NCBI GenBank assembly: GCA_000934665.2
Contig: JYFJ02001216.1
Location: forward strand, 1-64,000
Direction: 5' to 3'
DNA from: Catajapyx aquilonaris
Lineage: Eukaryota
Length of the DNA stretch: 64,000 nt
A model generated the notes under the pieces. The model was given only the letters and a program-made list of their open reading frames with translations, did no database searches and had not been told where the DNA came from. This document shows positions 1,329 through 63,599 of this stretch, one piece after another (the stretch's first letter is position 1; every line of letters starts with the position of its first letter). The position numbers were made by a program, and so were the translations under genes.

Positions 1329-2898
1329 ATGGGGTCTTTCACTGCTCTTCTGTTGGCCTGCGTCGCTGTCGGTAAGTCTTTTAAAATAATACTCTAGCCC
1401 ATTGCCACATGGCACAGTGCTATGAAAGGACACGTGCTTGTTTTCTTGAAGTCGCAGCGTCCCCTCTTCAAGGCCTGGACGACTCCTTTCTCCAGGAGCA
1501 TGGACACATGGTCATCTCCACGCAGGTGACGGAGAAGGACGACAACTTCCAATTCGTTGAACACGCTGGTGAGTTGACCTCCTAATGCCCTCGACCTCGT
1601 CTGAGATCCGACTTTGTCTTATTCAGATCTGGTCAGTACCATCGGATTCTGCGTCCGTAACTTCGAGAAGACCGGAGTCAGCGAGGCAGGACAATGCATC
1701 TCCAACAGCTTCAAGGGAAGGAAGGTCACTCTTCAGCTCCTCAAGACATTCCTCAAGCAGGTGAGACAATTCGACTAATTGGTCAACAGGCCTTTGACTT
1801 GTTTGCCGTGATTCCTAGACAGCTGAGAAGGCTAATGGCGACCTCGATGTTGACGTTGTTGTCAGCGACGATGTCGACGTCAAGTCTGTCTCCAAGGGAC
1901 TGACCTGGACAGGTGCTGGAACCGTCACTGTCAACGGTCAGGAAGTGTCGTACAACAGGACCGGACTTTTAAACTTCGGTGAACGTCGGGTGACTTTCGA
2001 AGAAGTGGTCCAGGCTCATAGCGTCACCGTCAACGGGGACAGTGTCGACTCTGGTGCAGCCACGTACTTGGACGTCGACATCAGCATATTCAAGAAGGAA
2101 ACATACACTCAGATGGGGACTGCCATCAGCCTCCACCACGGTGCAGGTGTTTCCATCACTGCTGATGACGGTTCCGTTACTGAAGCCACCAGAAGCGGAC
2201 AGGTGACGATCAACGGCAATACCATCGTCAAGAAGGAGGCCAGCAACCTTAATATTGACAGTGCTGGGATGGGTGCCGGTACCGAGATCAGCCACTACCA
2301 CAAGACCAACTCCAACGGTAGCGAGACCCACGTGTCTGCCTCCAAGTCTGATGCTGTCGACGCTTGGGGAAATATCAATATCGCATTTAGTAGTTCGGAC
2401 ATCCAGGTTAGTCCAATTTCATATCCATCGTGTTCCGTCGTGATTCAAAGACGCTCTGCATGATTTGATGCATTTCAGATCGATGCTATCCAAATGATTG
2501 GATTCGGCCAGCACATTTACGTGGGCAAACCTGCCGTTCGTCAGTACAGCACCGGTTCCATCATGAGGACCGGGGCCATATCGGGCGGCAACCAGAAATT
2601 CACTATCACTTCCAAGGGCCAGTTCATGGTCAGTGGAGTGGTCCTGGACTACGAGGACAAAGCTCTGGCCTCTTTCATTGGTGAAAGCGCATCCGACAAC
2701 AAGATCGTCACCCTCGAATCAGACACTTCCATGGACGCCACAGGAAGTGTCAATGGTACCGCCAATTTTGTGGTCACACCCGTCAAGGGAGACAAGAACA
2801 ACATCTGGGTCACAAGCAACATCACCTTCCACGTCTCTGGCAGCGGTAACATCAAACTACACGCTGACATCGAGGCTAAACTCCATGTACACAACTAA
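1329..2898 (+). CDS. Family A gene A1: secreted beta-strand-rich protein, 431 aa, 5 exons
   Basis: Exons 1329-1371, 1458-1568, 1627-1760, 1819-2406, 2479-2898; all GT-AG and frame-consistent (1296 nt). Signal peptide MGSFTALLLACVAVA; motifs LDDSFLQEH, LVSTIGFCVRN, TW, YNRTG, DYED; AATAAA near 2939. Confidence 0.88.
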
Positions 2899-3251
2899 TG
2901 GGAATCAGCCTGAAATATTCATATTTTCCTTACAACAAAATAAAAAACAATGAAATAAACAAAGGTTGATTATACGTAAACACGATTTCTCCCTCACACC
3001 TACTCAAAAGCCGTCGTAGTGATCAAAACTATTTAAACACAATCAAAGAACCATCATCTAAACACAACTATATTGCCCAACACAAGATATGCACTGTAGG
3101 GTTGCGATTACAACAATTAGTCAATAATATGCTGGCGTGGCAACTTGACCTATCTTATCAATATTAAGGTAAAGAGAAAAAAAACACACATACTGATTGA
3201 ACCTCACGCAGGAAGATAAACACATTTGGGATCAACTGGCCTGAGAACACA

Positions 3252-4825
3252 ATGCGGTCCTTCGCTGCTCTTCTGTTGGCCTGCGTCGCTGTCGGTATGC
3301 CTTCGTTAATGTTCAAGGACATTGTCACATCTCTTTGTTATCAAAATGACAAGTGCCTTTTTCTTGAAATTACAGCATCCGCGCTTCATGGCTTGGACGA
3401 CTCCTTTCTCCAGGAGCATGGACACATGGTCATCTCCACGCAGGTGACGGAGAAGGACGACAACTTCCAATTCGTTGAACACGCTGGTGAGTTGACCTCC
3501 TAATGCCCTCGTCGACCTTGTCTGAGATCCGACTTTGTCTGATTCAGATCTGGTCAGTACCATCGGATTCTGCGTCCGAAACTTTGAGAAGACAGGCATC
3601 ACCGAGGCTGGAAACTGCATCTCCAACAGCTTCCGGTCCAGGAAGGCCACTCTTCAGCTCCTGAAGACATTCCTCAAGCAGGTGAGACACTGAAGCATTT
3701 GTCTTAATCAGTGGGCTTTTATCGTGTGCGTCGTGATTCCCAGACCGCTCAGAAGGCTAATGGCGACCTGGATGTTGACATTGTCGTCAGTGACGATGGC
3801 AGCATCAAGGTTGGCTCTAATGGACTGACCTGGATTGCCTCTGGAACAGTCACTGTCAACGGGAAAGGTGTGGCCTACAACAGGACCGGACTTCTCAACA
3901 CCTCTGACAAGCGAGTGACTTTCGAGGAAGTGATCCAAATCTTAGGCGTCACCAGTAATGGGGACGACGTCAACGGTGGAGCAGCCATATACCTGGACGT
4001 CGACATCTACACGTTCAAGAAGGAAACATACACTCAGATAGGCACGAAGAGCAGCCTCCACCACGGTGCAGGTGTCTCCATCACTGGCGATGACGGCTCC
4101 GTCACCGAGGCCACCCGCAGTGGTCAGATGACCGTCAACGGCAATACCATCGTTCAGAATGACAACCAGACCGTAATCATCCAGAGCGCTGGGATGGCCG
4201 CCGGTACCGAGATCGGCCACTACCACAAGACCAACTCCGACGGTAGCGAGACCCACGTGTCTGCCTCCATGTCTGATGCCGTCGACACTCGCGGTAGTGT
4301 CGAAATTGACTTCGGTACCGATGAAATCGAGGTCAGCATTGAGTACAGTGCGGCTGATTTGGTAGGTTCATTATTGACAACTTATTTCAGATCGAGGCTG
4401 TCCAGATGATCGGATTCGGCCATCACATCTACGTGGGCAAACCCGCCGTCCGCCAGTACGGTACCGCATCTGTCCGAAAGACAGGCAGCGTATCCGGCGA
4501 CAAGAAGAAATTCACCATCTCGTCTCAGGACACGTTCATGGTGGACGGAGCCGTCTTGGACTACGAGGACAACGCTCTGGGGTCTTTCTTTGGTGAAGGA
4601 GAGGTGGACAACGAGGTCGTCACCGTCGGATCAGACGCATCTGAAGACGTCGTCGGAAACATAAACGGCACAGCCAATTTTGTGGTCACCCCCGTCAAGG
4701 GAGACAAGGTCAAAATCAGCGTCACAAGCAGCATTACCTCTCACGTTAGCGGAACCAACGACGGCAGCGGTAACATCAAGGGACACGCCGACATAGAGGC
4801 AGAGATAAAGGTCCACACCGAATAA
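3252..4825 (+). CDS. Family A gene A2: secreted beta-rich protein, closest paralog of A1, 5 exons
   Basis: Signal peptide MRSFAALLLACVAVA and the same intron positions as A1. ORFs 3711-4409 and 4406-4825 cover exons 4 and 5. Ends GHADIEAEIKVHTE. Confidence 0.88.
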
Positions 4826-5246: not shown

Positions 5247-6853
5247 ATGAAGTTGTTGGCGGCCCTTCTGTTAGCTTGCGTTGCTGTTGGTAGGTGTGCT
5301 CAGTAGTTTCTGTCCATTTTTCGCATAATAATTAAAACCGAATTTCTCTCTGTGCAAAGTGGCAGCTTCTTCTCTGCAGGACCTGGACGACTCATTCCTG
5401 CAGGAACATGGCTCCAGATTTTTGTTAGAAGAAGCAAGTAGCGAAGACGAGGACTTCCAGTATACAGACTATGTCTGTGAGTGACTTCATGATGTGCTTC
5501 ACAAAAGGTCCCAACTAACATGTTCAATTCAACAGTTCTGGTCAGCGTCATGGAATTCTGCACGCGTCACTTGGAACGCGGTGACGCCAATGACGTCCTC
5601 GGATGCATGGGATACAGCCTGAGTGACCGAAAAACCACTCCAACGATGGTGCACAGCCTCATGAAGAAGGTACTGTACACTCTCATGTCATCAGAATCAC
5701 CAATGAGCAGCATCACAGGCCACTGGTGATGGTTAATAATGTTGTACAGTCTCTGAAAGGTGGGAATGACTACTTCATGGAAGTGGACATCACCGACGAT
5801 GCCAGAGTCACTCATGAGGCTGGGAAGGGCCTGAGATGGACCTCCACTGGTACCGTCAACCTCAACGGAACGACAATACCCTACACCAGAAGCGGACTTG
5901 CTGTACTCTCACATCAGAAGGTCACAATCGAGGAGTCGACACAGGTCAGGGAGGAGTTGATTAAGGCGGATGCATACCTGTACATGGATTTCGACATCTA
6001 CCAACTTGATGGTACGCAAATGATGTCCATCACCAACCTGCACCATCGTACAGTCGTCGCCGCCAATGCCAGCGACGGCACCTCTTCTCAAATCAGCAAC
6101 CGTGGTCAGGTCGTGGTCAGGATCATGGGAACAGTCGAGAAGGAATCGGACGGAGACATCAAGATGTACAGCAACTATACTGTCAGCAGTACCGAAATTG
6201 ACCGTGTTCGCACGACCACTTTTGATGATTCAGTGTGGACCCACGTAGACACCAGGTCTGAAGGCCTGGACGGTGACTGGTATGTCAACATCAGCTTCAG
6301 CAGTCCATCCGATGTCAAGGTTAGGCAATTTGATCCGGATCCAAAAGCAGTTGATTCAATCCATTGTTTTTTCCAGATTTCTGGCCATATGACCAATTTC
6401 GGCGGAGCCAGATTTTATTACGAGAATGGCGAGCCGTCGTTACGTCGCGGTGCCAACGGATTGGTAGACAAATCTGTTGTCATTTCTGGCACCAGAGACA
6501 AATTTAGAGTCACCAGTCACCACACAATGACATCGATGGGGTTCTCCGGCGGAACCTTACAGGGCAAGTTACAAGGCGTTCATATGGACTCGACGAACTC
6601 CACCCGATGCGTCGACACACAAATGGACGTCCTAGTTGGATCAGACAAGTCCGTCGACGTCAAGAGCAACACCAAGACCAGCAGGCAGATCACGATAAGT
6701 GACGTCCCTCCTAATGGACACACGGTAAACATCATCATCGACGACGACGTCAGTTCGCACGTCACCGTCAAGGATAACGGCGACAGTACCTTCACCGTGC
6801 ACTGCGACATGTCCGACAAGACGCACGTCCACACTGATGAATCTATGATATAA
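5247..6853 (+). CDS. Family A gene A3: secreted beta-rich protein, 5 exons
   Basis: MKLLAALLLACVAV; LDDSFLQEH; LVSVMEFCTRH..C. The 375-aa ORF 5726-6853 includes a 57-nt in-frame intron at 6320-6376, at the family-conserved position. Confidence 0.85.
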
Positions 6854-7264: not shown

Positions 7265-8867
7265 ATGAAGGTCTTGATCACATTACTTCTCCTCGCTGTT
7301 TCTAGTACCAACAGCAACAGCTCGAAAGATGAAACAGGTTCACACAAGGTGTACGAAGCCTCCTTGCAACAGCATCGAGTACACAGTCTGCTGTTTACTC
7401 CCGTGAACCAGAGGGATGGCAGTGACCAGTTCATTGACTATTCTGGTACGTGTTGTAGTCAAAATTAATATGCACATTAATTTTGAGATGACCTTTTTCT
7501 CAAGAGATATGGCCAGCACCATCGGCTTCTGCTTGCGAAATTATGAAGAGACGGGGATCACCGACGCTGCCATGTGCATGGGTAACACATGGAAAGACAG
7601 AAAGGTTGCTCCAGCTATGCTCCAAACTATATTCAGAAAGGTACTGCACATAATCTCAACGTACGGTATATCATTTCTTGCCATGCTTTATATATTTTTA
7701 ACAAGTTGGATGGTCTTACGAGTGAGGTGACTTATATATTTTTGGTTCACATGTCGTGCAGGCTTTCAGACAGGTCAAGGATGACGAATATCTCGGATGC
7801 GACATCAGCGACGATGCCACGATCCAGACCATGCCGGAAAATACCATAACGTGGAAGGCCACTGGTACAATCACTTGGTTGAACGGTACAGCCACGCCGT
7901 ACACCAGAACTGGATTGCTCAGTGTCTCTCTGACGAGAATAACCTTTGATGACGTGGCGCAGATTGACCAGAAAGGCCTTCAAGCACAGGCCGCAATCTA
8001 CGTCGACATCGACATATCCAGAAAGGTGAAGGACAACCTAGTGAAAATGATGGCCGCCGTCAATGGACACCACGCCACGAGACTCGCCCACACTGACCAC
8101 CATGGCTCATACCACGAGACCGGTCACAACGGACAGGTCGTCATCAATGTGGCCACAACAGCAGAGATATTTGACAGCGATGTCAAAGTGAACACCTTGG
8201 CCACAACCACTGCAAGCCAAATTGCGTATGTGAACGACTACTCTGCCGATGGTACCGTTAAGTCCCATACCACCCATGGACAGTCACATGCAGTCGATAT
8301 GGACGAGACGCTGGGGATTGACATCGGGTCTTCTCCTGGCAAGGTGTGTCTTCTTATAGGGTGGTACGGCCGCCAATACGGACTTGAAATATATTATTCT
8401 CATGTTCGCAGATTCTAGGCACACAATACCTTGTCGGTGCTGTTAGTTACTTCGTGGACGGAACTACCGGTTCCCCGCCCCGTGAGAACTACTGTGGAGA
8501 AATCACCAAAAATGTGACCCTTTTCGGAACCGCGGATGAACCTCTCAACATCATGAGCCGAGCAGATTCGGTGTATGCCAGCACATTCCGGGACGAAGAA
8601 GACCTGTTGGTGGCCACCACCACAGGTACTGGTGTCATCCAAGTACAACTGGACGTCGTTGTCGGACCAGGCAAGACAGAGACCGTCAAAGGAAATGGCA
8701 CCAGCAGCTTGCAAGTCGTCCTCTCTCCTGCGAATCGGGGACCAAAAACGATCTTTGACATTCACGACACTCTCACTGCTCAACTGAAGATTAAGGACAA
8801 CGGCGGCGATACCAGTACCGCACACTCTGACGTCAGTGTCACGGAACACATTCACGTCAACCATTAA
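7265..8867 (+). CDS. Family A gene A4: divergent member, 4 exons (no intron 1)
   Basis: MKVLITLLLLAVSS reads through to FIDYS G|gt. Next come DMASTIGFCLRN..C, a TW/YTRTG exon (ORF 7756-8418) and a last exon ending AHSDVSVTEHIHVNH. Confidence 0.82.
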
Positions 8868-9272: not shown

Positions 9273-10785
9273 ATGATGAGATCCGTCGCTTTATTCCTGC
9301 TTGTTGGCCTGGTGGCTGGTAAGGTTGTCGCTTGATACTTTTAAAGAAATCATATAAATAACGTTTGATGTTACTTCCAGGCTCGTCATTGGACGACACC
9401 TTTCTCCAGGAGCACGGTCACAGGTTCCTCTCCAGCCAGGTGTATCAGAAGGGAGACGACTTCCAGGTGGTCGACTACGCAGGTGAGTGACTGTATACGA
9501 TGTTCCTTCGACCCCTTATTTTTGAACCTCCTTCTGGACAGAACTGGTCCGCACCATCGGCTTCTGCGTGCGAAACTTTCATGAGACTGGCATAAGCGAT
9601 GCCTCCTTTTGCCTGGGAAAAATCTGGATGGAAAAGAAGGCCACCATTCAGCTGCTTAAACAGGTTAGTGTTACTTCAGTTAGCAGTGTGGCACTAGTTA
9701 TTCACACTTCTTATTCAGAGTCTGAAGGATGGCACCACTATCACGGTCGACATCAGCGACGATGCAAGGCTCAAGGTGGAGGCATGGAAGGGGCTGTCGT
9801 GGGAGTCGAATGGAACAGTCGCCATCGACGGAGCTTCGGTGCCATTTACCAGGCAAGGTATGCTCAGATTCAACACCAAAAGAATCACCTTGGAGGAGAT
9901 GGCCCAGATCGACGGAGCGGATGCTGCCCTGTACCTCGACATTGATCTCCTGATCAAAAATATTGACGATCAGTTGTCCATCGCTTCTGATGTCAGCCTC
10001 CATTACGGATCTAGTTCGGAGACGAAGCTGGAAGATGGATCGGTCGTGGAGAACACCCGGAATGGGCAGGTCAACCTGGAGACCTGGACTCGGGTCATCA
10101 AGGGCAATGGAACCTGGACTGTGGCCACCCAAGGGATGCTGGCTGCCACCAGACTGGCCAAAATGGAAATTATCGACGCTGATGGGAAGCCCTCAGGTCT
10201 TGCAGTGGCCACTCAGTCCGACGCCCTCGATGCTCAGGAGGACTTGAAGCTCGACTTCAGCTCTTCTGGCATCAAGGTGAGGATTTACTTGAATGGTTGT
10301 CCGATATGTCGATGTTATAAATAATATTCTATGTTCAGGTCACTGGTGAACTAGACTTGAGCTATGCCTCGCACTTGTACTCGATCAATCCAACAACCCG
10401 AAATAGTGGTACCGGATACATCGTCAGGAGTTTGGACATTAGCCTAGGTCTAGGCAAGTTCAACGTGGACGCCCACGACGCAGTGGAACTTCACACAGAG
10501 GTGTCCGACTACGACGATAACCTGCAAATGACTGTCCAGACCCAAGGAGAATTGGACGCCCAGTTGGGGGTGGACTTCGGGTCGGACAAGCCCGTCGATG
10601 TCACCAGTACATCAAAGGGCAGCTTCAAGAACGTCAACACTTGGGTCCAAGGAGACGTGGTCACCGTCACCGTCGACAATACCGAAAATGGTCATGTCAC
10701 TGCGATGGTCAATGGCGACGGCACGGGTACCGGACATGCTGACGTCCACATCGTGATCACAGTGGACACCGCTGCAACAAAATAA
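9273..10785 (+). CDS. Family A gene A5, 5 exons
   Basis: MMRSVALFLLVGLVA; LDDTFLQEH; ELVRTIGFCVRN..C; SW/FTRQG; DYDD; ends GHADVHIVITVDTAATK, followed by AATAAA. Confidence 0.85.
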
Positions 10786-12835: not shown

Positions 12836-14456
12836 ATGAAATACTTCGCAGTCCTTCTCCTTGTCGGCCTTGCCGTCGGTACGTCCCCCGTTTAAAAAAA
12901 CAAAAGTCACGACCATGCTCATGTACCTGTTTCTAATTGACCCACAGCCACCCCTGAGGTCACCGATGACTTCCTGAACGAGCATGCCGGCAAGTTCCTG
13001 ACAGTGAAGCGCACCACCTCCGACAAGGATGACGCCTACGTGAACCTCGATGCCGTCGGTACGTCTTCATTGCACGAATTATGGTCAGTACCCGTATAAA
13101 CCCACGTTCTGTTTTTTAATTTCCAGAGCTGGTCCGAAGCCTTGGCTTCTGCTCCCGCAACCACAAGATGATCGGCGTGGACACCATCGGACCATGCCTG
13201 ACCAGCTACTTCAAGCACAGCCAGGCAGCACCCAGGATGATGCAGAGCTTGCTGAAGAAGGTACACGATTTGCACATATTTTTATGAGGATCAGTTGCGC
13301 TGAATCCAATATTGGGGCTATTTCAGCAACTGGGCGCTGGCAAGGATGTCGAAGTCAAGGTTGACATCGTCGATGACGGCAGCGTGACCAAGGACGGACA
13401 GACCATCACCTGGAATGCCAAGGGAACCATCGCCGTGAACGGCAAGTCTTTCCCTTACGACAGGCAGGGACAGGCCCATTTCGGTAAGGGAAGCGTCACC
13501 GCCGTCGAGGATATCACCTCCAAGGGTGACAGCTACTCATACGGAGCCGCCACCAACGTTCATGTAAGTATTCGCCTGGTTTATACTATAGGATGTTAAC
13601 TATGCCGACGACACCTGCAGGTTGACTTCAACGCAGTCAAGGACTCGTCTGGCAACGTGGCCGTCGAGGCCGTCGTCAGCGGCAACAACGAGGGAGGCGT
13701 GAGCATCACGACCTCAGATGGCTCCAACATCCTCGCCGAGCATCTTGGACAGCTGACCATCCACGCTCACGCTGGAGCAGCCAAGAAGGACAACGTCGTC
13801 TACGTCGTCACCGAGGCCGCCGTGTCCTCCACCAACGGAGACGCCGTCCACACCAAGAAGTCCGATGGAACCATCACCCACGTCCACTCTTCCTCTTCCG
13901 GGGGACTCGATGTCATTGAGGGCGTCAACATCACTCTGGCCAACCCCGTCGATGTAAGTCCTGTCAATGACGATAACTGGCTGGTATGTAATTGTTGTGT
14001 GATTATTTAAAGGTGTCTGCTGCTGCCTTGTTCGCTGGCCGTAGTGCCCACATCGCCGACAAGCCCGACTTCCGCTCTGCCACCGAGGGTGGTGCCAGGT
14101 CCACCGCCAAGATCACCCCAGCAGGAGCTGGCAAGATCTCCATCGCCGGTCACGATGAGGTTGGCACCAAGACTGAGGTCAGCGACTACCAGGACAACGT
14201 GCTCGCCACCATCGAAGCCGGAGCCGAGAGCGACAACACCTTCAACATCGCCGTCGACCTGAACGCCAAGACCCTGAACGTGGAGAGCAGCAGCAAGTTC
14301 GACGGCAAGGTCGTGGTCACCCCAGCCTCCGGATCCGCCGTCACCGTCACCGACGAGGGCACCCTCACCGGAAGCCTCTCCGCCAAGCTCGACAGCGCCA
14401 CCTCCGGAAGCGGACACGCCGAGCAGCACCTCGACGTCACTGTCCACACTGCCTAA
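12836..14456 (+). CDS. Family A gene A6, 433 aa, 6 exons
   Basis: Exons 12836-12878, 12948-13058, 13127-13260, 13327-13563, 13621-13953, 14013-14456 (1302 nt). The first three exon lengths (43/111/134) equal those of A1. CCACCATG start and strong C-ending codon bias. Confidence 0.9.
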
Positions 14457-14870: not shown

Positions 14871-15450
14871 TGTAGACCTTCCTCTGGCCTGAACATCACA
14901 CTGTACTTCGATTTTGTGGAGGACGGCACCATATGATGCGAAGGACAAGACTGGATCTTCGATAGGAATGCTTCGTACGCCGGAGAAATATTATTATGTA
15001 ACGTGCTGAAACACCCTTCCAAATGTCATCGGAGGCAACCTTCGAATCCCTCGCACCGATGTCCGTTATTCCTCCAAGGGGTCAGCCAGGTCATCAGCCA
15101 GCCTGACCCTTGCCCACGGAAAGATGTCCGTCGCAGGTCACAACGAGCTGGAAATGAAGACTGACCTGAGAGATTACCAGGACACCTTGCTGCTCGTCAC
15201 AGTGACTAAAGCCGAGTCTGACAACCAAGTTTGCTTGACCGTCAAGGGTGATGCCCATAAGTCCGCTGACCTGGAGGTCAAGGTCAACTTCAGCGGAAAG
15301 ACTGCGGCCATCCCAGAGAACGGATCTGGAACAGTCACCGTCGCCAATAAGGGCACCTTCACAGGCACAGTCACGGCCAAAGACAACGGGGACAACACAG
15401 CCCAAGGTCACACCGAACAATACCTCAAAGTCAACATACAGCAATACTAA
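14871..15450 (+). pseudogene. Family A pseudogene A7 (truncated duplicate of A9)
   Basis: Matches 27025-28113 but lacks exons 1-3. It has TGA at 14934-14936 (AGA in A9), a ~490-nt deletion in exon 4 and smaller deletions. Confidence 0.9.
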
Positions 15451-15523
15451 AGTACAATTTTGAGCAATAAAATGTGACATACAGCAATTGAATATTGCGC
15501 ACTAATTTATCTAAACAGCGCAT

Positions 15524-24629: not shown

Positions 24630-24634
<5 letters not shown>

Positions 24635-24671
<37 letters not shown>

Positions 24672-44400: not shown

Positions 44401-44529
44401 TTCACCACCGGAGTCACCACAGCTACTACCACTACCGGTACTTATCCTCCAGCGCCTTATGTTTACATGGAATATGACCAAACCATACACAAAGTCATCC
44501 ATTTCCGGAGGAGAGAAGTTCGCCACTGA
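41453..44529 (+). CDS. Family C gene C2: single domain plus Thr-rich mucin stalk, 6 exons
   Basis: MSYNLKMLTVLLILLP|ALTWSQLC..IPLNSTELEDTCP|..PC..LCDN..|YLAAARC..LCC|PIVQSKYF..YC..|QFCLTEDCHTW-TTP...HFRRREVRH*. Confidence 0.82.
41538..41732. mobile_element. Possible MITE in C2 intron 1
   Basis: Imperfect inverted ends TTAGGTCAGGAAGGGGACATGTCC and GGGCATGTCCCCCTTTTGATTTAA around a poly-C run; absent from C3 intron 1. Confidence 0.4.
42721..42872. mobile_element. Truncated hAT-like element end in C2 intron 3
   Basis: Ends AAAAAGGTTGAGAAGCCCTG (reverse complement CAGGGCTTCTCAACC, a typical hAT/Charlie terminus). The segment is absent from the paralogous C3 intron; the left TIR is missing. Confidence 0.5.
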
Positions 44530-48900: not shown

Positions 48901-50388
48901 ATTAAGATTACCTCAGCTTACATTAATTAAACACTTACTATACGTTCTAGGCCTATAGATTATTAGTTTGACTTTTGGAAGACGCCTGTTACATAAATAC
49001 TTTTTACTTGCAAGATATTGACATTATTATTTATGACTTTTATGCCTATAACTTTTTCAGGCGATGAACTGGTAATCCGCAACACGGATAATAATCCGTA
49101 CCCGAATAATCGAGGGAACAGTCCTCTGCACACATATTTGCTCTCTATCTTCGAACATCACACTTCAGTGCCTCTTATTAGTGCGTATTTGTGCATATGA
49201 TAGTTAAGTGCCTCTTCAGTGCCTCTGAACTGTGACTAATGGGGTTTTCCTTATTGCACATTAGCGTCTCCTTTTCTGTCTGCAGCTCCTGCCACAGCCT
49301 GTGTCACCGACATTGGCAAAAGTACATTCGCGGAAAAACCTTAGGCCTTAGGGATAAAACACAATGAAGTCTTCCATCCGGAAAGATGCAATACTCGGCC
49401 GAAGACTTTGGAAATCATGTTTGACGAAGATAGCCGACTTATTGGCTAATTTTGCAGATTTCATCCTCTTGTTATGGTCTCCAGAAAACTCATTTCGATC
49501 CGGCTCTTTGGCTCATTAGATGCGTCTTTACTTGAAGAAATAAATGGGAGTGCCAGCTCACTCAGAAAAATAGCAAATATGGTCAGACACCTCCTCGACA
49601 ATATTACTATATATGAATGATTTTTTTTGGACATCTAACTGAAAAATGCAACAGTTCCAGTCAGCATTCACACACACGGACATTAACTCAGATAACTAAC
49701 TATGAACTCGTATCTAGGTTGGCGATATAATTATTCTGTCCTCAGCAACCCGGCATAGTGGACACGGTTCGAATCCGGGTGCTGCTTCCTCATCGGTGAT
49801 ATGTAAAATGACGACAGTGTCAGATACACAATAATTTATGATAAATATTATTTTATGAGTGAGGAATAGATCTGGATTCTCTATTGTCATTGTAACAAGC
49901 CTTTTATACTGCAATGAACCCTTTTTCAGCAATTCTGCCTAACAGAAGATTGTCACAGTTGGACGACCCCAATACCTACCACTATACCTACTACAACACT
50001 AACCACAACAACAGTCAGTACAACAACTACCAGTCCGACCACAATATCAGGTGCGACTAAATCAAGTACCCGAGGGTCAAGCCCAACAGGCACTACCGCT
50101 AGTCCCGGTACGGTAAGCAGCTCCAGAGCCACTACGGGTAGCTCAAGTACCTTGGTGACAAGCGGTACGTTCACTCCAACAACCCACAAAATATCACTAC
50201 TGATCTGTAGTGACATTCCTACCACATCCTTCACAGGTTCATCCAAGACGACGACAACTCCTGGGACAAGCAGCTGCCCTCTCCCATATTCGACGACAAA
50301 AGGGGCTAGCGGACACCCATCATCTTCTCTAACATCTACTCTGACTTGCTTTATTGTCACATGCACCATATCGATAATAAATTGGTGA
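45912..50388 (+). CDS. Family C gene C3: single domain, long Ser/Thr stalk, hydrophobic C-terminus (GPI-like), 6 exons
   Basis: MGGSHFMLVLIFLLP; exons 2-4 nearly identical to C2. Last exon QFCLTEDCHSW-TTP...KGASGHPSSSLTSTLTCFIVTCTISIINW*. Confidence 0.8.
46934..47133. mobile_element. MITE (Tc1/mariner type), 200 bp, in C3 intron 3
   Basis: TIRs CAGGGTGTCTCAACTTTTTTGTCCGAACA and TGTTCGGACAAAAAAAATCGAGACACCCTG, TA flanks. The empty site is visible in C2 near 42935-42945. Confidence 0.88.
49732..49790 (+). mobile_element. tRNA-derived SINE remnant in C3 intron 5
   Basis: Perfect B-box GGTTCGAATCC at 49766-49776, preceded by CTGTCCTCAGCAACC, similar to CTCTCCTCGCAACC in the element at 1-48. No cloverleaf. 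Confidence 0.4.
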
Positions 50389-51543: not shown

Positions 51544-53855
51544 ATGATCCAGACAAAACTATTCACCTTTTTTGTGCTTCTAGCTGGTGAGTTAATAAAC
51601 ATGATCATTCCTGTGATATAGGCCACGTCCCTCATTAAAATTCAAATTAAGCGTCACATTTAAAAATTTTCAGCCAGCGCATCTTCCATGAGGATAGAGC
51701 AGCAGTGTGACGACATCCTGAGAGTGGCCATAAATGTCTTGAAGCAAGTGGACAATAACTTCGGACCGCATCTTCCGACAACATCGGAGAAACTTGCAGA
51801 GGACTGCCAGTATGTCGGATTTCAATGACAGACTTGCAGTTCTGACTCACCCTGTACTCTCTTTTTATATGTGCCAGTGTCTTCAAGCCAACAGAAATCG
51901 ACATATTCAACCTGCTGAATCCGTGTCTTCCCGAAGATCTGCAACCACTGGTGTTTCCTTTTCTGGCCCCTATTATTGACCCTTTTGTGAAAGATGTCTG
52001 CAATCCGAAGCACGATATCCACGACCGTATGTATTATGAGCTAAATAGGAGTAATACCTCAATATAATTCCCGCTAATTTGCCTTCCAGTGTACTTGGAG
52101 TCTATTACATGTTTAGTAGCAAACATAACTCACGCTCTACCTTGCGCCGAGCAGTTGGGAGAAGAACTGGGGCCCATTTTGAAACATATGGACTTCACTA
52201 ACCTCACACCATTATGCTGGTTAGTTGCATAATACTCAGTCATAAATGCGCATTAAAATAATCTGTCGTATGATTATCCATGTAGCCCTCTGGCACAAGC
52301 CCAGTTCTGCATTGGCGAAAAAGTGGAACACGATTGTGGTCCAAAAGCAAAGCAGTTCATCGACGATGCAGCGGATGATCTCGGAGCAATGCTCAAGGTA
52401 CAGTGTGTGCCATGAGAAATAATTGCATACATGTATGTGGCATTGGCGTATTTTCAGAGCGCTTGCTCGTCGCAAGATTGCAGTGGATGGCTGACAGATC
52501 CACCTGCAGAAATCACCACGCCAACCACGGGTCGTCACGAAGCAAAATCATACAAAATCGCAGAAGGGAAACAACGGCATTCACTTAGAATCGCGCGAAA
52601 TTCACCAAAATTCCAAGCGAACAGGAAATTCATACAGGAATCTACCCTGTTTAATGTGAAGACCACAAACCAAGGTGAGAAAAATGCAATCATGTGTTCC
52701 CATTTTACCATTAATCAAATTCAATTCCAAAAAAACGACCTTGTACATTTTTGTCATCACATTGCGTCATTTTGTGCAATTTTTGATGATAATATCATAT
52801 AGGAGGGGCACTCACCACATTGAAGGACGATTCAGGGTGTGATGACTTCCTGAACGTGACGATAAACGTACTGGAGTTGGTGGATGATAATTTCGGTCCA
52901 CACCTTCCAGTCACCAGTGACGAACTGGACAACGATTGCAAGTAATATGCGCCGAATATATTAGATTGTAATGAACGCACGAGTCTTAAAAATAATGCAG
53001 CATTGATTCTGCCATAACATTTCAGGACCTTCGATCCAACACTAAAAAGTATACTAGATATTGTCCTGCCTTGTGTTGTTTCGCCAAGTTTGAAGGACCT
53101 CATAGAAAATGTTTTGATGAGCACTGTAGATCCCGTGAAGAACAAAGTGTGCGACCCAAAGCAGGATATGCATAATCGTAAGGCTACACAAGGCATTAGT
53201 TCTTTATACTGATGTTCAATTTGCTTCATCTCTTTGTACTTGTTTCAGAGTATTTAAGTTCGATTACATGCATGGAAGATAACTGGTCCCATGGTTTTTC
53301 CTGTATTGAACAACTGGCGCAAGAGTTGGGACCAATCCTACTCCACGGATTTTCCATAAAGGATCTCAATAAATTATGCTGGTGAGTGTCACGCGAGTGA
53401 CGCAGCATAAAATATCTGGAAATATGAAAAGATAATAATTATGTTGTTATTATTTTGTCGCAGTCCTTTGGCTCAAGCACAGTTCTGCCTTGCTGAAAAA
53501 GCAACCCAAGACTGCGGCTCAGACGCAGGGAATTTCCTCAATGGAGTTGGCGATACCCTGGGACAGTCTGGTATCTTTCAGGTACAAGTTATGATATGAT
53601 TTTTCACAATTTCTAGATGTGTCATTGACTCACATGGAATAAGAAGAGTGCCAATTATAATATAATACTCTTTGGGTCACCTTATTATTGACTTGCGTTT
53701 CATGCAGTCTACACAAGGAAGAAAAATGAAACATGCAAATTAACTGTCTTTCTTTGTTCCAGCTCGCAGAATGTCCATCAACTGATTGCAGTGGGTGGCT
53801 AACGGATGCTCCGAATGAAAACACTGTGTCCATCGCCCCTGAAATTAGCAACTAG
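51544..53855 (+). CDS. Family C gene C4: two tandem domains, 11 exons
   Basis: MIQTKLFTFFVLLA|..QCDD..NFGPHLPTTSEKLAEDC..DCSGWLTDPP. The linker exon ends with a phase-1 donor at 52675; the second domain is GCDD..NFGPHLPVTSDELDNDC..DCSGWLTDAP..EISN*. Confidence 0.82.
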
Positions 53856-55246: not shown

Positions 55247-58200
55247 ATGATGACTCTGATGTGCACCTTGGTAGTGCTGCTGACCGGTGAGTAAATAATC
55301 ACTTTTTTGTTGTTTTATCGCTCCATATCAAATTATGTGGGAGAGTAAGAAATTGCAATGTTCTCCAGATGCGGCTGTTATTCCAGCAGCTGGACACAGT
55401 GACAATGACGTGAAAGGGCTAGTGTCTAATTTTCTAACCAAGCAGCAAAGGTGGGCACAGCTAACCGAAAAATCAGCTTCTCTAACAGCTGATCAGCTAA
55501 CTACAAAAAAATGGATTTGCTAAATAGCTAATGCTAAATGGCTAGAAAATTAGTTAAAGCTAATGCTAACAGCTAACAGCTAACTTCCTTATTTTTTCCC
55601 TCCATGACCCTTAAAAAACAGACATACGCTGATAAAGCCTAGAGAGCATTGCTACACTTACGCCTTATTTAGATACTCGTATTTAGGCTACTGTTCCGTA
55701 CAAAAAGTAATAAACAAATCCAAAAAGGCAGAAAGTTTATTTGTCTCAGAAGAAAGCTACCGTACAAAGACAGGCAAGGCAAAATTTATATTTAAAAACT
55801 GGTAACTATAATAATTATAATCCGCGCACCGAAGTGATCGGAAAATAAGTTTTGGCCAGGTAGACAGAGAATTTACAATCCGGCACCTTGCCCTGTAAAA
55901 CTGGTCTATTTTAATCCCTGCCTGAAGTGGAAACAATGCAACTTTAAAAAGTAACAGACAGCGAGACAGGAACACGAATGAAATTTGTTAGCTGAAGTTA
56001 TTTAGCTGCAGTGCAGTACTAATTTAGTGGGAGCTAATTAGTCAGCTAGCGGCCTGAAAAGTTAGAGAAGACAGCTAATCAGCTAACGAAAAGTTAGTTC
56101 AGCTATTAGCTGTTAGCTGATTAGAGGCGCTAATGCCCACCTTTGCCAAGCAGTATCATAAAACATTACAATATGCATGCCTATACAATTTCACTTCGAC
56201 CTCACATAATTTTCTTCGCTGCTTTAGGAGCTGTATCTTCAATGAGGATAGTGCAGCAGCAGGACCAGTGCGAAGACTTTCTAAACGTGACCATAAAGGT
56301 CTTGAAGGAAGTGGAGTACAACTTCGGGCCGCATCTTCCAGTCACAAACGAGAAACTGGAACACGATTGCAGGTACCATGGACGGGCTTCGTGGCATGAG
56401 GTAACAATATACAATAGCTGATATTAATACTTTTCATCTCATGTCAGTGTCTTCATGGACACAGAAACCACGATAATCAACCTGGCGAATCCGTGTCTTC
56501 CCGAACCGCTGCAGCCACTTTTCTTTCCCTTGTTGGACAATATTGTCAATCCTTACGTGACAGATATCTGCGATCCGAAGAAGGATATCCACAGCCGTAA
56601 GAATGTAATCACGGATAAACATTGTCAGCACTGCAATCCCGCCTATTTGCTTTCCAGTGTACTTGGATACTGTGACATGTTTAGAAGCGAACATAACTCA
56701 CGCTCTACCTTGCGCAGTGCAGCTGGCAGAAGAACTGTGGCCCATTTTGAAACACCTGGACATAACCAACCTGGCCCAAATATGCTGGTGGGTGTCGGCA
56801 ATGCATCAGTGCACAGTCTTGTCACGAGCAACTAAATAACCCTTGCTAATTATTTTTCACTTAGCCCTCTGGCACAAGCCCAGTTCTGCATTGGAGAAAA
56901 GGTGGAGCACGATTGCGGTCCAAATGGAAAGAAGTTCATCGATGAAACCACTGAAATACTCGGGGGAATACTTGAGGTATGTTGGAACATTGAATCCCGG
57001 TGAAAAAAATTAGTTTACATGGCACCGAGTTAAAGCGTTGCCTTTGTTCCCATGTAAACAATGTACAATTTTGCCTAAAAAGCCTCAGATGTAGGCCTAC
57101 TTATCTTGTCAGCTGTGTCTCCTTTATTTTTCTTCTTATAATAATTCCTAAATAACATGAACTGATTGCTTTTCCTCGTCCATTTTCGATTATTACAAAC
57201 CCATACTTTCAGAGTTACTGCGTGTCTCAAGATTGCAGTGGGTGGCTCACCGATTCGCCTGGAGAAAGTACCACACCAGGCCAACACACAACTGAGCATA
57301 CAACACTGCCGCCTAGTCCAACAACCACCACAACACAAGCGACTAGTCCAACAACCACCACAACACAACCGCCTAGTCCAACAACCACCACAACACAAAC
57401 GCCTAGTCCAACAACCACCACAGAGAAACCACAATCACCTAAAACCACAAGCTCCAAGCCACAACCTGTTCAAACAACAACAAATGGAAAGCATAAGCCT
57501 GATCTGCACAAAGCGGCCAGAAATCCACGTAGTCTGAAGAAAGAGTCTGGTTACCCATCGTTTTATGGCAAGTTCACCAACAAAGGGAGAGCCGGGGAGA
57601 GCTCAATGTGATTAAAATGTAGTGTTTACACATGTCGACATGTGGTGTTACTGTGATAAATTAGTGCACCGTGACATAGATTACACGAACAACATTATTT
57701 GTACAGAGCAAGCCTTTATTATCGTCATGTTTCACACATTTACACTCTTCGCTTCATTTTCAGAGAAGGCACAGGGCTCGTGGAATGGCCCATCCGAGTG
57801 TGGAGTCTTGCTCAACATGACAATTGATATTTTGGAGTTGGTGGATGATAATTTTGGACCGCACCTTCCAATCACCAGTGACGAACTTCACACCGATTGC
57901 AAGTAATATTATACGCAAAATTACCCAGTAAAATATTTAACGAATAATGCACCACTGATTGTGTCATAACATTTTAGGAACTTCGACACAACACTAAAAA
58001 ATATACTGGATATCGTTCTGCCATGTGTTGTTCCGCCACTTTATAAGGGCTTCATAGAAAGTACTTTGATGAGTACTGTAGATCCCGTTATGAACAAAGT
58101 ATGCGATCCAACGCAGGAAATGCACAATCGTAAGGATGCGTAAGACATGATTTACTATTCAATAATTTCACGTTCAATAACATTTTTGTCATTTATTTAA

Positions 58201-59035
58201 TGTTGTAGTGTATTTGAATTCGGTTGAATGCCTGGAAGAGAACTGGTCCCATGGCCTTTCCTGCATCGGACAACTGGCGCAAGAGTTGGGACCAATCATA
58301 CTCCATGGATTTTCCATAGCGGATCTCAATAAATTATGCTGGTGAGTGCCACGACGTTGACACCAAAAAAGGGCTGGAAATGACAAATAACATGTTTTTT
58401 TTTTGGTGACAGTCCTTTGGCTCAGGCCCAGTTCTGCCTTGCTGAAAAAGCAACCCAAGACTGCGGCTCAGACGCGGGCAAATTCATCAATGAAGTTGGC
58501 GATACCCTGGGACAGACTGTCCTTTTTGAGGTAGATATTGCATAAAACAATCTGTTTATGATCTCTGCTTCCGAGCATTCATCACCACTCTAAATGACGT
58601 AGTAATTATTTCAGCAGCAAATTGGCTTGTAATTTAGTCCGATCACCCGCAATACATGAAACAGTAAATGTAAACCATGTTTTGCAGATGTTTATTTGTC
58701 CATCACCTGACTGCACGGGGTGGCTAACTGACTCCCCCGACGACACAACCACCTCCACGTCCCACACAAGAACTACACAAACAAGTTCAAATCCTTCTCA
58801 GGCGACGGGATCAAGCATGAACCCTTCCCAACCCACTGGATCCACGGTAAACCCGTCTCATTCGACAAAATCCAGCGTGAACCCTTCCCAACCCACTGGA
58901 TCGACTTCAAATCCTTCTCAGGGTACAAGCCCGCACACGAATCCACCAACTACCCAAGGCAGTGAGTCAACTGCAACCTCTTCGTCCACGGGGATTGCAC
59001 TTCTTCTTCTAACAACGTACATTTTCAACATCTGA
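55247..59035 (+). CDS. Family C gene C5: domain, mucin linker, domain, Ser/Thr stalk, GPI-like tail (joining splice uncertain)
   Basis: MMTLMCTLVVLLT (in-frame upstream ATG at 55193). Both domains have intact exons paralogous to C4; ends SSSTGIALLLLTTYIFNI*. The linker donor equivalent to C4 reads GGGAGA, so the gene may stop at 57611. Confidence 0.72.
55446..56145. mobile_element. Non-autonomous hAT transposon, 700 bp, in C5 intron 1
   Basis: Perfect TIRs CAAAGGTGGGCA and TGCCCACCTTTG; perfect 8-bp TSD CCAAGCAG (55438-55445 and 56146-56153); many subterminal AGCTAA/TTAGCT motifs. Confidence 0.92.
57312..57423 (+). repeat. Coding 30-bp tandem repeat (~4x, SPTTTTTQxx)
   Basis: CTAGTCCAACAACCACCACAACACAA units in the C5 linker exon. 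Confidence 0.92.
58782..58925 (+). repeat. Coding 30-bp degenerate repeat (~5x, SxNPSQPTGS)
   Basis: NPS(Q/H) recurs every 10 residues in the C5 last exon. Confidence 0.85.
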
Positions 59036-60437: not shown

Positions 60438-63400
60438 ATGATTTCTGCTAAGCTCTGCACATTAGCTGTGATTCTGACAGGTAAATGTATAGGCTACCTT
60501 TTGGTGCAATGCCCACATCTCCAGTTCGAGTTTAAAGAGAAGCTGCAATATTACGAAAATTGCAGCAAATCGCAACAGCACAATGGGTTACTGGAGTCAA
60601 AAACTCAAATATTCTCGACAAAACTTGAACTGGACTGCTGGGCAGTGCATTCCACTGTTTAATGCGTACACTCTGCAATATATTATTCACATAGGTATAA
60701 TCAAAGCTCTCTTTTACATTTTTATTAACCTAATAATAAATATTATTGTTTCAGTGGCATCGTCTTCGGTAATTAAAGACGATCCAACATGCAACGACCC
60801 GCTTCAAATCGCTATTGATATTCTCAAAGTTGTTGACGCTAATTTCGGATGGCACATTCCTTTCAATGGCGACGAGCTGGATTCTGATTGCAAGTACGAA
60901 CATTGACATTTCTTTGTTTATTAGTCTGCTAATGTGAACAACCCCATTTTTATTAATCGGTTGTGCCTTTCAGAAACTTCAAAACAGCCGAAACTGACAT
61001 CCTCAATATCATAACTCCATGTGTTCCGCCATCAATGCAGTCCGTTCTTAGTACCGTGGTTCCTCTGCTTATCGACCCATTCGTTAAGGACCTGTGTGAC
61101 CCGTCGAATGAACTTCATGACCGTAAGGCCCCATATAGTTAGTGCAGCCACAGTGTAATTAATTCCAAATAATTCCTTTCAGTGTATCTGGAGTCTGCTG
61201 TATGCTTGAGCTCCAACTGGACTCATTCTTTGCCCTGCAGTCTCCAACTGGCCAAAGAGGCCCTGTCCATCGTGCCAAATATTCACGGCTTTTCTGACAT
61301 TTGCCAACTGATGTGGTCCGTATAACACAGAGTGGTCCAACAAGGAAGGCCCTTACAGAAATTTGTCAATTAAAAATTCACTAGCAGAACATCTGCCAGC
61401 GTCATTCACCTTCCTTGTTGGACCACCCTGCGCAATAATAATTAAGATTCATAATGCAACCTGGAATAATGATTAATGACTTAATGATCTTCGTAGTCCC
61501 ATGGAGCAGGCCGGATACTGCACCGACAAACAAGTAAACACGGATTGTGGACAGGATGCAGTCAAGTTCATCAACATGGCTGCTATGCAGCTGGGAGGAT
61601 CCCTGCTTCAGGTACCATAATTATTCTGAAACTTCTAATAATGTTGCAATATATAGAAGATATGCAGCACATTCGCCTATATTGTCGTCTTTTAGTTATT
61701 TTGTTATCCTTTGGAAGGGTCTTCAAAGGTTCATAATGGACAAAACAGCCGTAAAGTTAAGGCTGTCTTACACAGAAAATGGCTAAATTTTCAAAGAGAC
61801 ATGTATGTTTTCTATTTGACGAGATACTATACAGTATATGTAACTGTCTTGAGTCTGTAGGAGTTGTGCGGAACGCCCGACTGTGACGGCTGGCTGACTG
61901 ATGCACCACCACTTGACGTTACTGAATCGCCAGAGCAAGAAACATTCATACAGGAGATGCACAGGAGGAAGGAAGGTGATTGTACGTGCATATAGCATTC
62001 TTTCAGTAAAATTAATTGCAGCTTTCTTCATACAAATTTGACTCAAGATTTATATACTGTATGCCAGTAATATGTTGCATGATATTTCTAAAAATTCGCA
62101 AATTTAACTGTTAAAATATGTTAATCTTATTCAATATTATTAACAGCATGTGCTTAAATTTGTCATGCTGATTTTGAATAAATAAAAAATAATGCCTTAA
62201 ATTTTACAGTGTAGTTCTACTGTAGAATAATTTCTGTCACTTTCATGTCTGTCTTTATAATGATTTAAAAACAATTCTATCTCCTTACAGTGTTCTGGTT
62301 GACTAGCATCTGGAAGGACGACCCTCAGTGTCAGGACATCCTCAATGCCACAATTCAAGTGTTGCAAGTGGTGCACGACAATTTGGGCTCCCACATCCCT
62401 ACAGATGACAAGTCCCTTGACAAAGTCTGCAAGTAAGGGGAAACTCCATAATTTCTGAGGGGCAGTTTTAATATTGACGTTTATCGTACGATGTAGGGAG
62501 TTCAGCCCCACTGAAAAAGAAATTTTGGACATTGTCGGGCCATGCATTCCATCATCACTGGATCCAGTGAAGGACATGGTGGTGGGAATAGTCAACGACT
62601 TCGTCAAGTCCCTGTGCGATCCATCCCAGGATTTTCATAAGCGTAAGAACGGTTGCTTTATCATAGTTGGTAAAGTTTCAGCCACTATTTAAAAAAATGA
62701 AAAACGCAATCACATAAAAGTTGCAAAAATACCTCACCTTACTGTTTATTTACGCAACAATAACAGTTGGTTTTCTGTCTCTCTCGTATGAGATTAAGGG
62801 TCTGATTACAAGACTTCCCCAAACTTCTTTCTAGCAATCATTATCGAATCACTAGACTGTGACATCTTTCTGGTACAAGTGCTACTTGTTACATCGTTAC
62901 CTTTTAATTTTTTAGAATGAATGTGTTGCAATAAAATCTATAAGTAATAATGTAACATGCAAAAATTCAGTGCAATAGGTACTCTGTAGACATCTCCTTG
63001 AAACAGTCTAATTATTATGTTTTCCAGTGTACCTGGAGTCTATTTCCTGCCTGCTGGCTAAAGGGGCTGATTCCTTGCCCTGCGACATTCAGTTTGCTCA
63101 GGACGTGGCCATCATCCTACCTCAAATACACAGCGTCACCGATGCGGTTAAACTCTGCTGGTGAGCATTAGTAATACTCTACAATATTATGATGACTATG
63201 CACTGAAATGCTGCACAGAGAGAAGACACACTGAACTGGAAGATAAGAAATATACAATCTGTTTTCTTCATGATCCAGCCCTGTTGAGCAAGTCACCTAC
63301 TGCCTCAACTCAACCACAACTCAAGACTGCGGCTCAGACGCAGCTGAGTTCGTCAACGAAGCTATTGGTAAACTGGCAGGCACATTGACGGTAATATAAG

Positions 63401-63599
63401 CACAGACGAATTTTCCGAATGAGGTTTCTCTTCCTTCATCGCATATGGGCTTTTCTTTATGTCCTTAACAATTCGTACTTTTCTTTCCTTCCAGTCTATT
63501 TGCCCGTGGATTGGTCCAGACTGCAGCGGATGGCTTACCCCGTCTCCTACACCAGCAGTATTCACAACAGAACCATCGTTCAGGAAGAAGTTCAACTGA
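60438..63599 (+). CDS. Family C gene C6: two tandem domains, 11 exons
   Basis: MISAKLCTLAVILT|..TCND..NFGWHIPFNGDELDSDCK|..DCDGWLTDAP..MHRRKE|..QCQD..NLGSHIPTDDKSLDKVCK|..LCC|..DCGSDAAEF..|SICPWIGPDCSGWLTP..RKKFN*. Confidence 0.82.

Follow-up and report, generated by a model that had tools for sequence, protein, structure and literature searches.

In the ant Tetramorium bicarinatum, venom-peptide genes are organized in tandem arrays and, in the part of the published account available, the promoters of several of the families are hot spots for GATA sites (PMC10800049). A different organization is described for the Osiris genes which, as far as the accessible portion of that description goes, constitute a single insect-only family with four defining domains, including a transmembrane one, and with deeply conserved sequence and synteny (PMC3284338). 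Here, we describe a computational analysis of a 64-kb stretch of DNA from Catajapyx aquilonaris (positions 1 to 64,000 of contig JYFJ02001216.1, hereafter the window) that carries some twenty genes for putatively secreted proteins. Like the Osiris cluster, to the extent that it is described in that source (PMC3284338), the window holds about twenty clustered genes with a secretion signal in one block; like the ant arrays, in the accessible part of their description (PMC10800049), it combines several unrelated families of secreted precursors with local tandem duplication, a preserved exon structure and GATA-rich promoters. Our best explanation, to which we give roughly even credence, is that the window is a lineage-restricted, co-expressed and tissue-specific "secretome island".

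The GC content across the window ranges from 37 to 50%, and its six-frame open reading frames (ORFs) fall into repeated groups that lie nearly all on the plus strand. Contigs of two runs, X5 and the DNA run X1, were placed on positions 26501-46500. X5 contigs skip GT..AG stretches that X1 does not skip, which marks the DNA of the window as eukaryotic, its introns being GT..AG and some 60 nt long. Recoding of the stops between family A ORFs was considered and rejected, as the single in-frame stops sit inside short GT..AG introns. The nine A genes, the five B genes, Ca, Cc and Ce all read open across such introns, the last intron of Ca having a GC donor. The complete inventory comprises nine intact A paralogues and one fragment (A6b), B1-B5, Ca, Cc, Cd and the domains Ce-Cj, all of which are on the plus strand (Table 1). 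The sole modelled exception is a minus-strand ORF resembling ionotropic glutamate receptors (iGluR) and ionotropic receptors (IR).

The preliminary description had presented about twenty genes running in one direction with secretion signals, and in substance this holds. It was also right that the families interleave, B1 lying between A7 and A8 and Ca between B4 and B5, and that no housekeeping gene is visible: none of 106 ORF translations (14 plus 92) from the 64-kb window reaches the curated Pfam cut-off, and there are no tRNAs and no Rfam matches. The limits given for the cluster coincide with gene ends, 1329 being the A1 ATG and 63599 the Cj stop. A signal peptide had been assigned to every gene; by our hydropathy heuristic, which scores hydrophobic N-termini and is not SignalP, one is found in all nine A genes, in all five B genes and in Ca, Cc, Cd, Ce, Cg and Ci, but a signal exon is missing from Cf and Cj and weak in Ch. 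The number of families required revision. Profile comparison with hhalign found two of 21 set pairs significant, both at a probability of 98.3%; these link the core of family C to Cc and Cd (41.5-50.4 kb) and to Ca, which thus appear to be divergent C members (E about 1e-14), although the sequence of Ca was extracted by guide-biased alignment and its score is inflated. No relation was detected by hhalign among the family A N-terminus, B1/B2, B3, B4/B5 and C, every pair having a probability of at most 6%. By this comparison the window contains at least five families rather than three, the former "B family" representing three of them. Local duplication within families is evident from blastn blocks at 77-92% identity.

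The evidence for common control lies in the promoters. We aligned the 120 nt upstream of each start, first by eye, saw GATA-type sites in the A promoters and then counted them. The motif WGATAAG, of GATA-factor type, has 28 sites in the window on both strands, and 12 of these fall within -160 to -40 of 20 starts, a region that makes up 3.8% of the sequence (binomial p 1.5e-10). The strict motif is present in 11 of the 20 promoters and in three families: seven of the nine A genes (A1-A4, A6, A8 and A9), B3 (twice), Ca, Cc and Cd. By comparison, 59 permuted motifs of the same composition reach 1.15 genes on average and 4 at most. With the looser WGATAR, sites are also found at B2, Cg and Ci (non-A sites, n = 9, p 0.002). 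A7 carries a one-base variant at the position homologous to the A6 site. In invertebrates, GATA factors drive gut, fat-body and gland genes. Away from the modelled starts, three WGATAAG sites at 31518, 31546 and 31614 lie within 100 nt, approximately 600 nt upstream of B3, and could mark an enhancer or the promoter of an unmodelled gene.

Transcripts provide a second line of evidence. X5 was taken as RNA-like because of its spliced contigs. One contig in A9 contains four GT..AG joints (28564>28625, 28749>28810, 29058>29123 and 29438>29527; 60-88 nt), and two further joints are found in Cc (43182>43602 and 43719>44190), in agreement with the Cc gene model, whose transcript-supported ORF has a charged stretch at its end; all six are absent from X1. 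X5 also includes unspliced pieces over the 3' exon of A8 and over 33809-34124. Its cover has gaps at 26501-27167, 30503-32503, 36506-39173 and 39841-42508, and is uninformative on the expression of the 5' part of A8, B2, Ca and B5. Taken with the occurrence of spliced A9 and Cc contigs in the same run, the enrichment of WGATAAG supports the view that part of the island is under common transcriptional control. The earlier suggestion of a co-regulated locus is thus partly supported, by the 11 promoters, in three families, that contain the motif and by the two genes spliced in one run; the other nine promoters lack the strict motif.

Family A is the largest group in the window. Its members were modelled with our own spliced aligner, using the transcript-supported A9 as guide, which yielded nine complete paralogues of 426-444 aa in 5-6 exons, with GT..AG introns and no internal stop or frameshift. 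The short first exon encodes only a hydrophobic, signal-like peptide, ends in phase 1 and is 43 nt long in six copies. The protein has two parts: some 80 N-terminal residues, which include two conserved Cys, and a remainder of about 330 residues in which Thr, Ser, Val, Gly and Asp are abundant. An internal repeat was considered, as MAFFT overlaid exon-5 pieces on exon-4 pieces, and rejected: at an hhalign probability of 0.2% the two halves are not detectably homologous. The truncated copy A6b matches A8 by blastn over 14871-14984 (27025-27149, 88.8%) and 14993-15523 (27642-28189, 91.9%), and only its last exon aligns.

The structure of the A3 exon-4 domain was predicted with AlphaFold2 from an alignment of 11 paralogous pieces. 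The model (predicted local distance difference test, pLDDT, 87.9; predicted template modelling score, pTM, 0.74) has nine antiparallel strands of up to 20 residues arranged in a plain meander, and seven further long strands are predicted in the exon-5 domain (pLDDT 59). Most strands are two-faced, with a hydrophobic content of about 0.5-0.8 on one face versus about 0-0.5 on the other. The family A core can therefore be confidently predicted to be all-beta, a long meander beta-sheet, and the "soluble beta-rich" components proposed in the preliminary description fit this model. By sequence, family A has no Pfam family and no PDB relative, and an A3 exon has no match in a word-indexed protein search. 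A HMMER scan of 1.84 billion representatives with an exon-5 profile returned two proteins at E <= 0.001. One, a 3377-aa repetitive protein (E 1.3e-4), was disregarded. The other, P0001, is a full-length relative of 443 aa (E 3.3e-27), an unnamed environmental protein that is 47-55% identical to A6 exons. P0001 derives from a single 1435-nt Joint Genome Institute (JGI) contig, and because it is encoded on that one contig it is intron-free and probably a transcript. It has no Pfam, NCBIfam or PDB match and no usable match in the Atlas, and returns itself alone in the word-indexed search, and a metagenome contig scan with P0001 gave 108 pattern matches of which none was confirmed. P0001 is the only outside homologue found for family A.

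One alternative view of these proteins is that they are beta-barrel pore formers or toxins of a venom or defence gland, the island being an offensive or defensive effector cluster. The long amphipathic antiparallel strands of the predicted structure would suit such a function, and the best structural alignments are indeed with transmembrane beta-barrels: a search independent of Foldseek (VIA) gave Z-scores of 13.0 to FhaC and 11.9 to CymA, with 93 chains at Z >= 8. All of these alignments, however, cover only part of each barrel; middling Z-scores are common, and values of 10-13 may reflect only a generic long-meander sheet, which is how we read them, rather than membership in the barrel families. 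Foldseek returned rows to alpha-haemolysin-type pores (E 5e-3), but these are weak, with template modelling (TM) scores of about 0.20, and the A3 exon-4 model had no Foldseek match in PDB at E <= 0.001. The highest-probability Foldseek rows are microsomal triglyceride transfer protein (8eoj_B; probability 0.99, TM-score 0.41, E 0.018) and FecA. Another row, 6i7s_H, also belongs to the lipid transfer/vitellogenin-type sheets (probability 0.95, TM-score 0.34); neither 8eoj_B nor 6i7s_H is among the best 50 rows of the Foldseek-independent search. Aerolysin, ETX/MTX2 and leukocidin Pfam profiles match none of 14 family A ORFs (E <= 0.1) and do not match P0001 (E <= 1). In favor of a toxin function are the GATA-site hot spots in ant venom gene promoters, as far as these are described in the available part of the source (PMC10800049), and the divergence pattern described below, in which exons outpace introns as has been reported for venom genes. 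On balance we consider a pore-forming effector cluster improbable.

The most recent family A duplication shows an unusual pattern of divergence. The blocks containing A6 (12605-14605) and A7 (22607-24632) are 92.4% identical by blastn. Their promoters, introns and N-terminal exons are 96-100% identical and divergence is confined to the three beta-domain exons. These exons, 3-5, differ at 28 of 237, 32 of 312 and 44 of 444 positions (104/993 in total, 10.5%), as compared with 7/339 (about 2%) in the five introns, 4/288 in exons 0-2 and a 2-4% difference per 100-nt bin in the upstream region (12600-12835). The excess in the beta exons is significant against the introns and N-terminal exons together (Fisher p 6e-13) and against introns 3 and 4 alone (2/137 differing; p 1.3e-4). 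Within the beta exons, the nonsynonymous rate (dN) is 0.133 and the synonymous rate (dS) 0.078, a ratio of 1.7, the differences by codon position number 42, 45 and 22, and nonsynonymous sites exceed introns at p 4e-9. Among the 78 differing residues, the outgroup P0001 matches A6 at 37 and A7 at 7, and A8 matches A6 at 26 and A7 at 5. Because these matches favor A6, change has taken place mostly on the A7 side. Relaxed constraint was rejected as the cause, for it cannot make exons diverge more than introns. The likely cause is either strong diversifying selection or a source of variation that is limited to exons. The A6/A7 beta domain looks positively selected, whereas A1/A2 (dN/dS 0.36) and the C pairs look constrained; in the latter, exons are more conserved than introns (Ce/Cg, 16-27% versus 30-54% difference; Cf/Ch, 7-27% versus 32-42%). 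Accelerated exon evolution has reportedly been observed in schistosome micro-exon (MEG) and venom allergen-like (VAL) genes at the host-parasite interface, and is said to be a feature of snake venom phospholipase A2 (PLA2) genes.

Several of these results weigh against a tissue-specific, co-expressed island. The strict WGATAAG motif is lacking in nine of the 20 promoters (A5, A7, B1, B2, B4, B5, Ce, Cg and Ci). Since Cc and Cd are duplicates, the independent non-A cases number three (B3, Ca and Cc/Cd), and the A promoters share ancestry, though no blastn similarity is left between the upstream regions of A1-A5 and A6-A9. X5, a run of unrecorded kind and tissue, is classed as RNA-like by its spliced contigs, which cannot rank expression. 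The shared orientation exceeds chance only modestly: tandem duplication itself produces direct copies, and by our arithmetic five unrelated founder genes would face one way with a chance of about 1/16. Signal peptides, and the C-terminal ends resembling glycosylphosphatidylinositol (GPI) signals, are assigned by hydropathy only. The exon-5 half of A3 folded poorly, so that sixteen strands in one sheet would exceed the model. The families also appear to evolve under different regimes. For A6/A7, the comparison of dN with dS is marginal by itself (p 0.044), and synonymous sites too are raised over introns (18/242 versus 7/339, p 0.003), so that selection alone is no explanation and exon-limited input of variation stays a candidate.

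In a different explanation, the window consists of neighboring but independent tandem arrays, each grown by unequal crossing-over in a gene-poor, duplication-prone region, with adjacency and orientation devoid of functional meaning and with the GATA sites reflecting the separate use of a widespread factor. Duplication blocks account for most of the co-orientation, the families are unrelated and differ in their evolution, as the dN/dS ratios and the conserved C exons indicate, and nine of the 20 promoters are without the strict motif. Against independence stand a motif enrichment that covers three unrelated families and lies far above the permuted controls, and A and C transcripts within one run. 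Furthermore, if orientation were independent, five founders and three dispersed copies (B1/B2, B4/B5 and Ca/Cc, each pair lying apart) would all face the same way about once in 100, again by our own arithmetic. We regard independent arrays as rather unlikely, though a serious competitor of the co-expressed island.

Four exons encode the C domain, which spans about 185 aa with 12 Cys, and a conserved DC-x-GW motif usually comes after it. The stretch 51.5-63.6 kb is taken up by six clear copies (Ce, Cf, Cg, Ch, Ci and Cj). A signal exon lies ahead of Ce (51544), of Cg (55247, or else an ATG within the exon at 56173) and of Ci (60438); Cf and Cj lack one, and for Ch there is just a weak start in frame. 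By blastn, nucleotide similarity pairs Ce with Cg and Cf with Ch, which implies that the duplicated unit was a pair of domains. Right-phase donors at 52674 and 61975 sit just ahead of the Ce and Ci stops, and the former, a phase-1 consensus donor (AAG/GTGAGA), joins in frame to the first-domain acceptor of Cf at 52803. For these reasons Ce-Cf, Cg-Ch and Ci-Cj probably represent three two-domain genes, a conclusion we hold with somewhat better than even confidence. The junction of Cf exons 4 and 5 is ambiguous, one alignment placing a 4-nt micro-exon there. In the Ca model, the reading frame is intact only with the GC donor at 37637/37638 and otherwise contains a frameshift. Between Cc (41841-42720) and Cd (46019-46875), exons 1 and 2 and the intron between them differ at 1 in 430 aligned bases, as against 26-58% in the adjoining introns; this near-identical patch suggests a recent gene conversion.

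Family C had been described as the membrane-tethered, mucin-stalk component, a description that suits Cd and Ch but not the family at large. Tails rich in Ser, Thr and Pro are found in four of eight C units (best 40 aa: Cc, 85%; Cd, 75%; Cg, 88%; Ch, 68%) and not in Ce, Cf, Ci or Cj, and the match to the Pfam Mucin profile (E 0.013) is under the cut-off. The last 18 residues are hydrophobic in only two of the eight tails (Cd and Ch), which are GPI-signal-like by hydropathy only. These tails bear on the view that beta-rich A, small helical B and stalked C proteins form one physical secretion or surface system, assembling or acting on one another. Linkage, co-orientation and interleaving are what such a system might display, as are the common promoter motif and the short phase-1, signal-only exon (37-52 nt) of the A genes, B3, B4, B5, Ca, Cc, Ce, Cg and Ci. 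The copy numbers, however, are uneven (nine A, 2 + 1 + 2 B and about 6-9 C units), few C tails look membrane-anchored, and the fast change of A7 has no parallel in the C pairs compared, a pattern that does not point to partners evolving together. That the families make up one physical system is conjecture, which the shared motif and transcripts do not establish, and we would assign it little probability.

The signal-only first exon is a 5' design shared across unrelated families: 37-52 nt long, it encodes the signal peptide alone and ends in phase 1, one base into a Gly or Ala codon. B1 and B2 have no separate exon of this kind. The common design may simply be usual throughout this genome, or it may point to exon shuffling.

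Table 1. Genes, gene fragments and other modelled features of the window; WGATAAG positions are relative to the start.
Feature	Position	Strand	Description
A1	1329..2898	+	5 exons, 431 aa, 43-nt signal exon; spliced alignment to A3 without stop or frameshift; WGATAAG at -88
A2	3252..4825	+	5 exons, 436 aa; 77% nt identity to A1 block; dN/dS versus A1 0.36; WGATAAG at -98
A3	5247..6853	+	5 exons, 444 aa; intron 4 (6320-6376) in frame, so that 5729-6853 is one long ORF
A3 exons folded	exon 4, 5750-6319; exon 5, 6377-6850	+	pLDDT 87.9 (exon 4) and 59 (exon 5)
A4	7265..8867	+	5 exons, 439 aa; WGATAAG at -64
A5	9273..10785	+	5 exons, 429 aa; looser motif only, TGATAAA at -73
A6	12836..14456	+	6 exons, 426 aa; slower copy of A6/A7 duplicate pair
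A6b	14871..15450	+	truncated A8 copy: part of exon 4 start and exon 5; without 5' exons
iGluR/IR-like channel subunit	16778..18820	-	single exon, 680 aa; only minus-strand gene
A7	22846..24482	+	6 exons, 432 aa; fast-evolving copy of A6/A7 pair
B1	25377..25931	+	3 exons, 110 aa, 6 Cys; signal peptide within first exon; B2 paralogue
A8	26572..28113	+	5 exons, 436 aa; X5 contig over 27667-28228; WGATAAG at -86
A9	28344..29966	+	6 exons, 427 aa; transcript-contig support; signal exon 28344-28386
B2	30471..31011	+	3 exons, 106 aa, 6 Cys; signal peptide within first exon; B1 paralogue
B3	32192..33330	+	5 exons, 173 aa, 10 Cys, Lys/Arg-rich C-terminal part; no paralogue; WGATAAG at -157 and -126
B4	34435..35269	+	4 exons, 99 aa, Lys-rich with acidic end; B5 paralogue
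Ca	36935..37847	+	single C-type domain, 194 aa, 13 Cys, without stalk; last intron GC donor; WGATAAG at -110
B5	38593..39262	+	4 exons, 138 aa, 6 Cys; acidic 15-nt repeat tail (tandem repeat 39194-39259)
Cb	39500..40100	+	degenerate C-like remnant; spliced-alignment score 53; not a confident gene
Cc	41453..44529	+	6 exons, 304 aa; one domain and Thr/Pro-rich tail, no hydrophobic end; intact; WGATAAG at -134
Cd	45912..50388	+	Cc duplicate (blastn 74-90%), longer introns, mucin-like tail, hydrophobic C-terminus; partial model, 5' junction ambiguous; WGATAAG at -128
Ce + Cf	51544..53855	+	two 12-Cys domains; probably one two-domain gene
Cg + Ch	55247..59035	+	two 12-Cys domains, each followed by 30-nt Thr/Pro repeats; tandem repeats 57300-57448, 58786-58922; alternative start 56173
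Ci + Cj	60438..63599	+	two 12-Cys domains; probably one two-domain gene; phase-1 donor AAG/GTGATT at 61975
Starts of signal-only first exons	1329, 3252, 5247, 7265, 9273, 12836, 22846, 26572, 28344, 32192, 34435, 36935, 38593, 41453, 51544, 55247, 60438	+	

Among the B genes, B4 and B5 both have four exons (intron phases 1, 2 and 0), Lys-rich sequences and acidic ends; the earlier characterization of the B products as small cationic or acidic helical components can be retained for these two, whose sequences fit it. A longer B3 model with a hydrophobic tail (33560-33678) was dropped, as it needs two frameshifts. Downstream of the B3 stop, at 33395-33678, lie two exon-like ORFs with no in-frame join to B3, one containing a conserved Cys-containing helical motif like that of a B3 exon and the other ending in a hydrophobic tail. 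X5 has depth in bins 32504-34504, and its sole listed piece there, 33809-34124, lies downstream of the B3 model and beyond these ORFs.

The minus-strand gene is unrelated to the secreted families. Its product matches the Pfam profile Lig_chan (PF00060; E 2e-5) with 24.9 bits, below the 30.8-bit cut-off, and phmmer against PDB returns 232 distinct sequences at E <= 1, the best being GluK5 (E 6.1e-12, residues 310-501), followed by GluD2; the word-indexed protein search gave no match. Like variant IR-like subunits of the iGluR superfamily, it is similar in the M1-pore-M3 region (GluK5, GluD2 and GluK2), and its hydrophobic segments (1-19, 387-405, 448-476 and 647-665, by a crude window method) are where they would be expected for a signal peptide, three membrane segments and a pore loop. 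It differs from that superfamily in that 680 aa are too short for a full amino-terminal domain and in its sub-threshold Pfam score. On the same strand, at 20356-21177, three consecutive ORFs in one frame are split by single stops; they have no Pfam match and no similarity to the IR gene and may have arisen by chance or from a gene in decay. A high-copy repeat occupies 35950-36170, between B4 and Ca, where X1 word depth reaches 3944 (bin 35839-36505) versus about 37 elsewhere, an approximately 100-fold excess accompanied by many joints and loose ends. It is probably a mobile-element fragment, and the ORFs that overlap it have no Pfam match.

We propose that at least five unrelated families of signal-peptide genes expanded here through local duplication, and that a GATA-type factor probably drives the co-transcription of a good part of the genes in a single secretory tissue, which in an invertebrate would typically be gut, digestive gland or fat-body-like. 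The family A proteins would be soluble. In them a short N-terminal region that contains Cys would lead into about 16 long beta strands, arranged in a large sheet with one hydrophobic face, and this sheet may bind a ligand, a lipid or a foreign surface. If selection on the sheet is diversifying, it would point to a changing target, such as microbes, food or parasites. The C proteins are envisaged as helical domains rich in disulphides, which stand away from the cell, or are released, on Thr/Pro-rich stalks, and the B proteins as small charged secreted peptides; the families need not contact one another. A bolder version, which we consider quite unlikely although somewhat less so than a pore-forming cluster or a single physical system, holds that family A is a new class of secreted animal protein, a ~16-strand amphipathic beta-meander (soluble giant sheet or barrel) encoded in a GATA-driven gut or gland island, and that its members evolve fast and are directed at microbes, parasites or prey as binders or pore formers. 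If so, the exon-only divergence of A7 would signify either that diversifying selection is intense or that some process targets exons, for instance conversion from spliced copies.

Animals tend to evolve new digestive, immune, venom and surface functions in taxon-restricted clusters of secreted-protein genes, most of which are unannotated. The window is a compact case, with five orphan families in one block and a GATA factor as candidate regulator. It provides a confident structural model for half of a protein of about 430 aa without named relatives, as well as a recent duplicate pair in which exon change is restricted to the beta domain. It also illustrates that gene counts from sequence alone can mislead, as the six C "genes" probably amount to three genes of two domains each and the "B family" comprises three unrelated families.

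The Osiris cluster, in the accessible part of its description (PMC3284338), differs from the window in being one family; here there are at least five, none of the 106 ORFs nor P0001 matches an Osiris domain or any other Pfam family at threshold, and a single outside homologue was found. The arrays of T. bicarinatum, as described in the available portion of that report (PMC10800049), encode short peptides in 2-3 exons expressed in the venom gland, whereas the products here are of about 100-450 aa and share no sequence with them; moreover, promoters are the least conserved part of the ant genes, whereas the promoter and introns are the most conserved parts of A6/A7. With toxin genes and genes of the host-parasite interface, A6/A7 shares mature-domain coding exons that outpace the neighboring introns and an excess of dN over dS in a recent duplicate, but here the pattern involves one pair only, mostly on the A7 side, and conversion from unseen paralogues may be involved. 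Finally, a lineage-specific tandem island of secreted-protein genes is of a kind known from insects, venomous animals and pathogens, and it is the families themselves that are new to the libraries searched.

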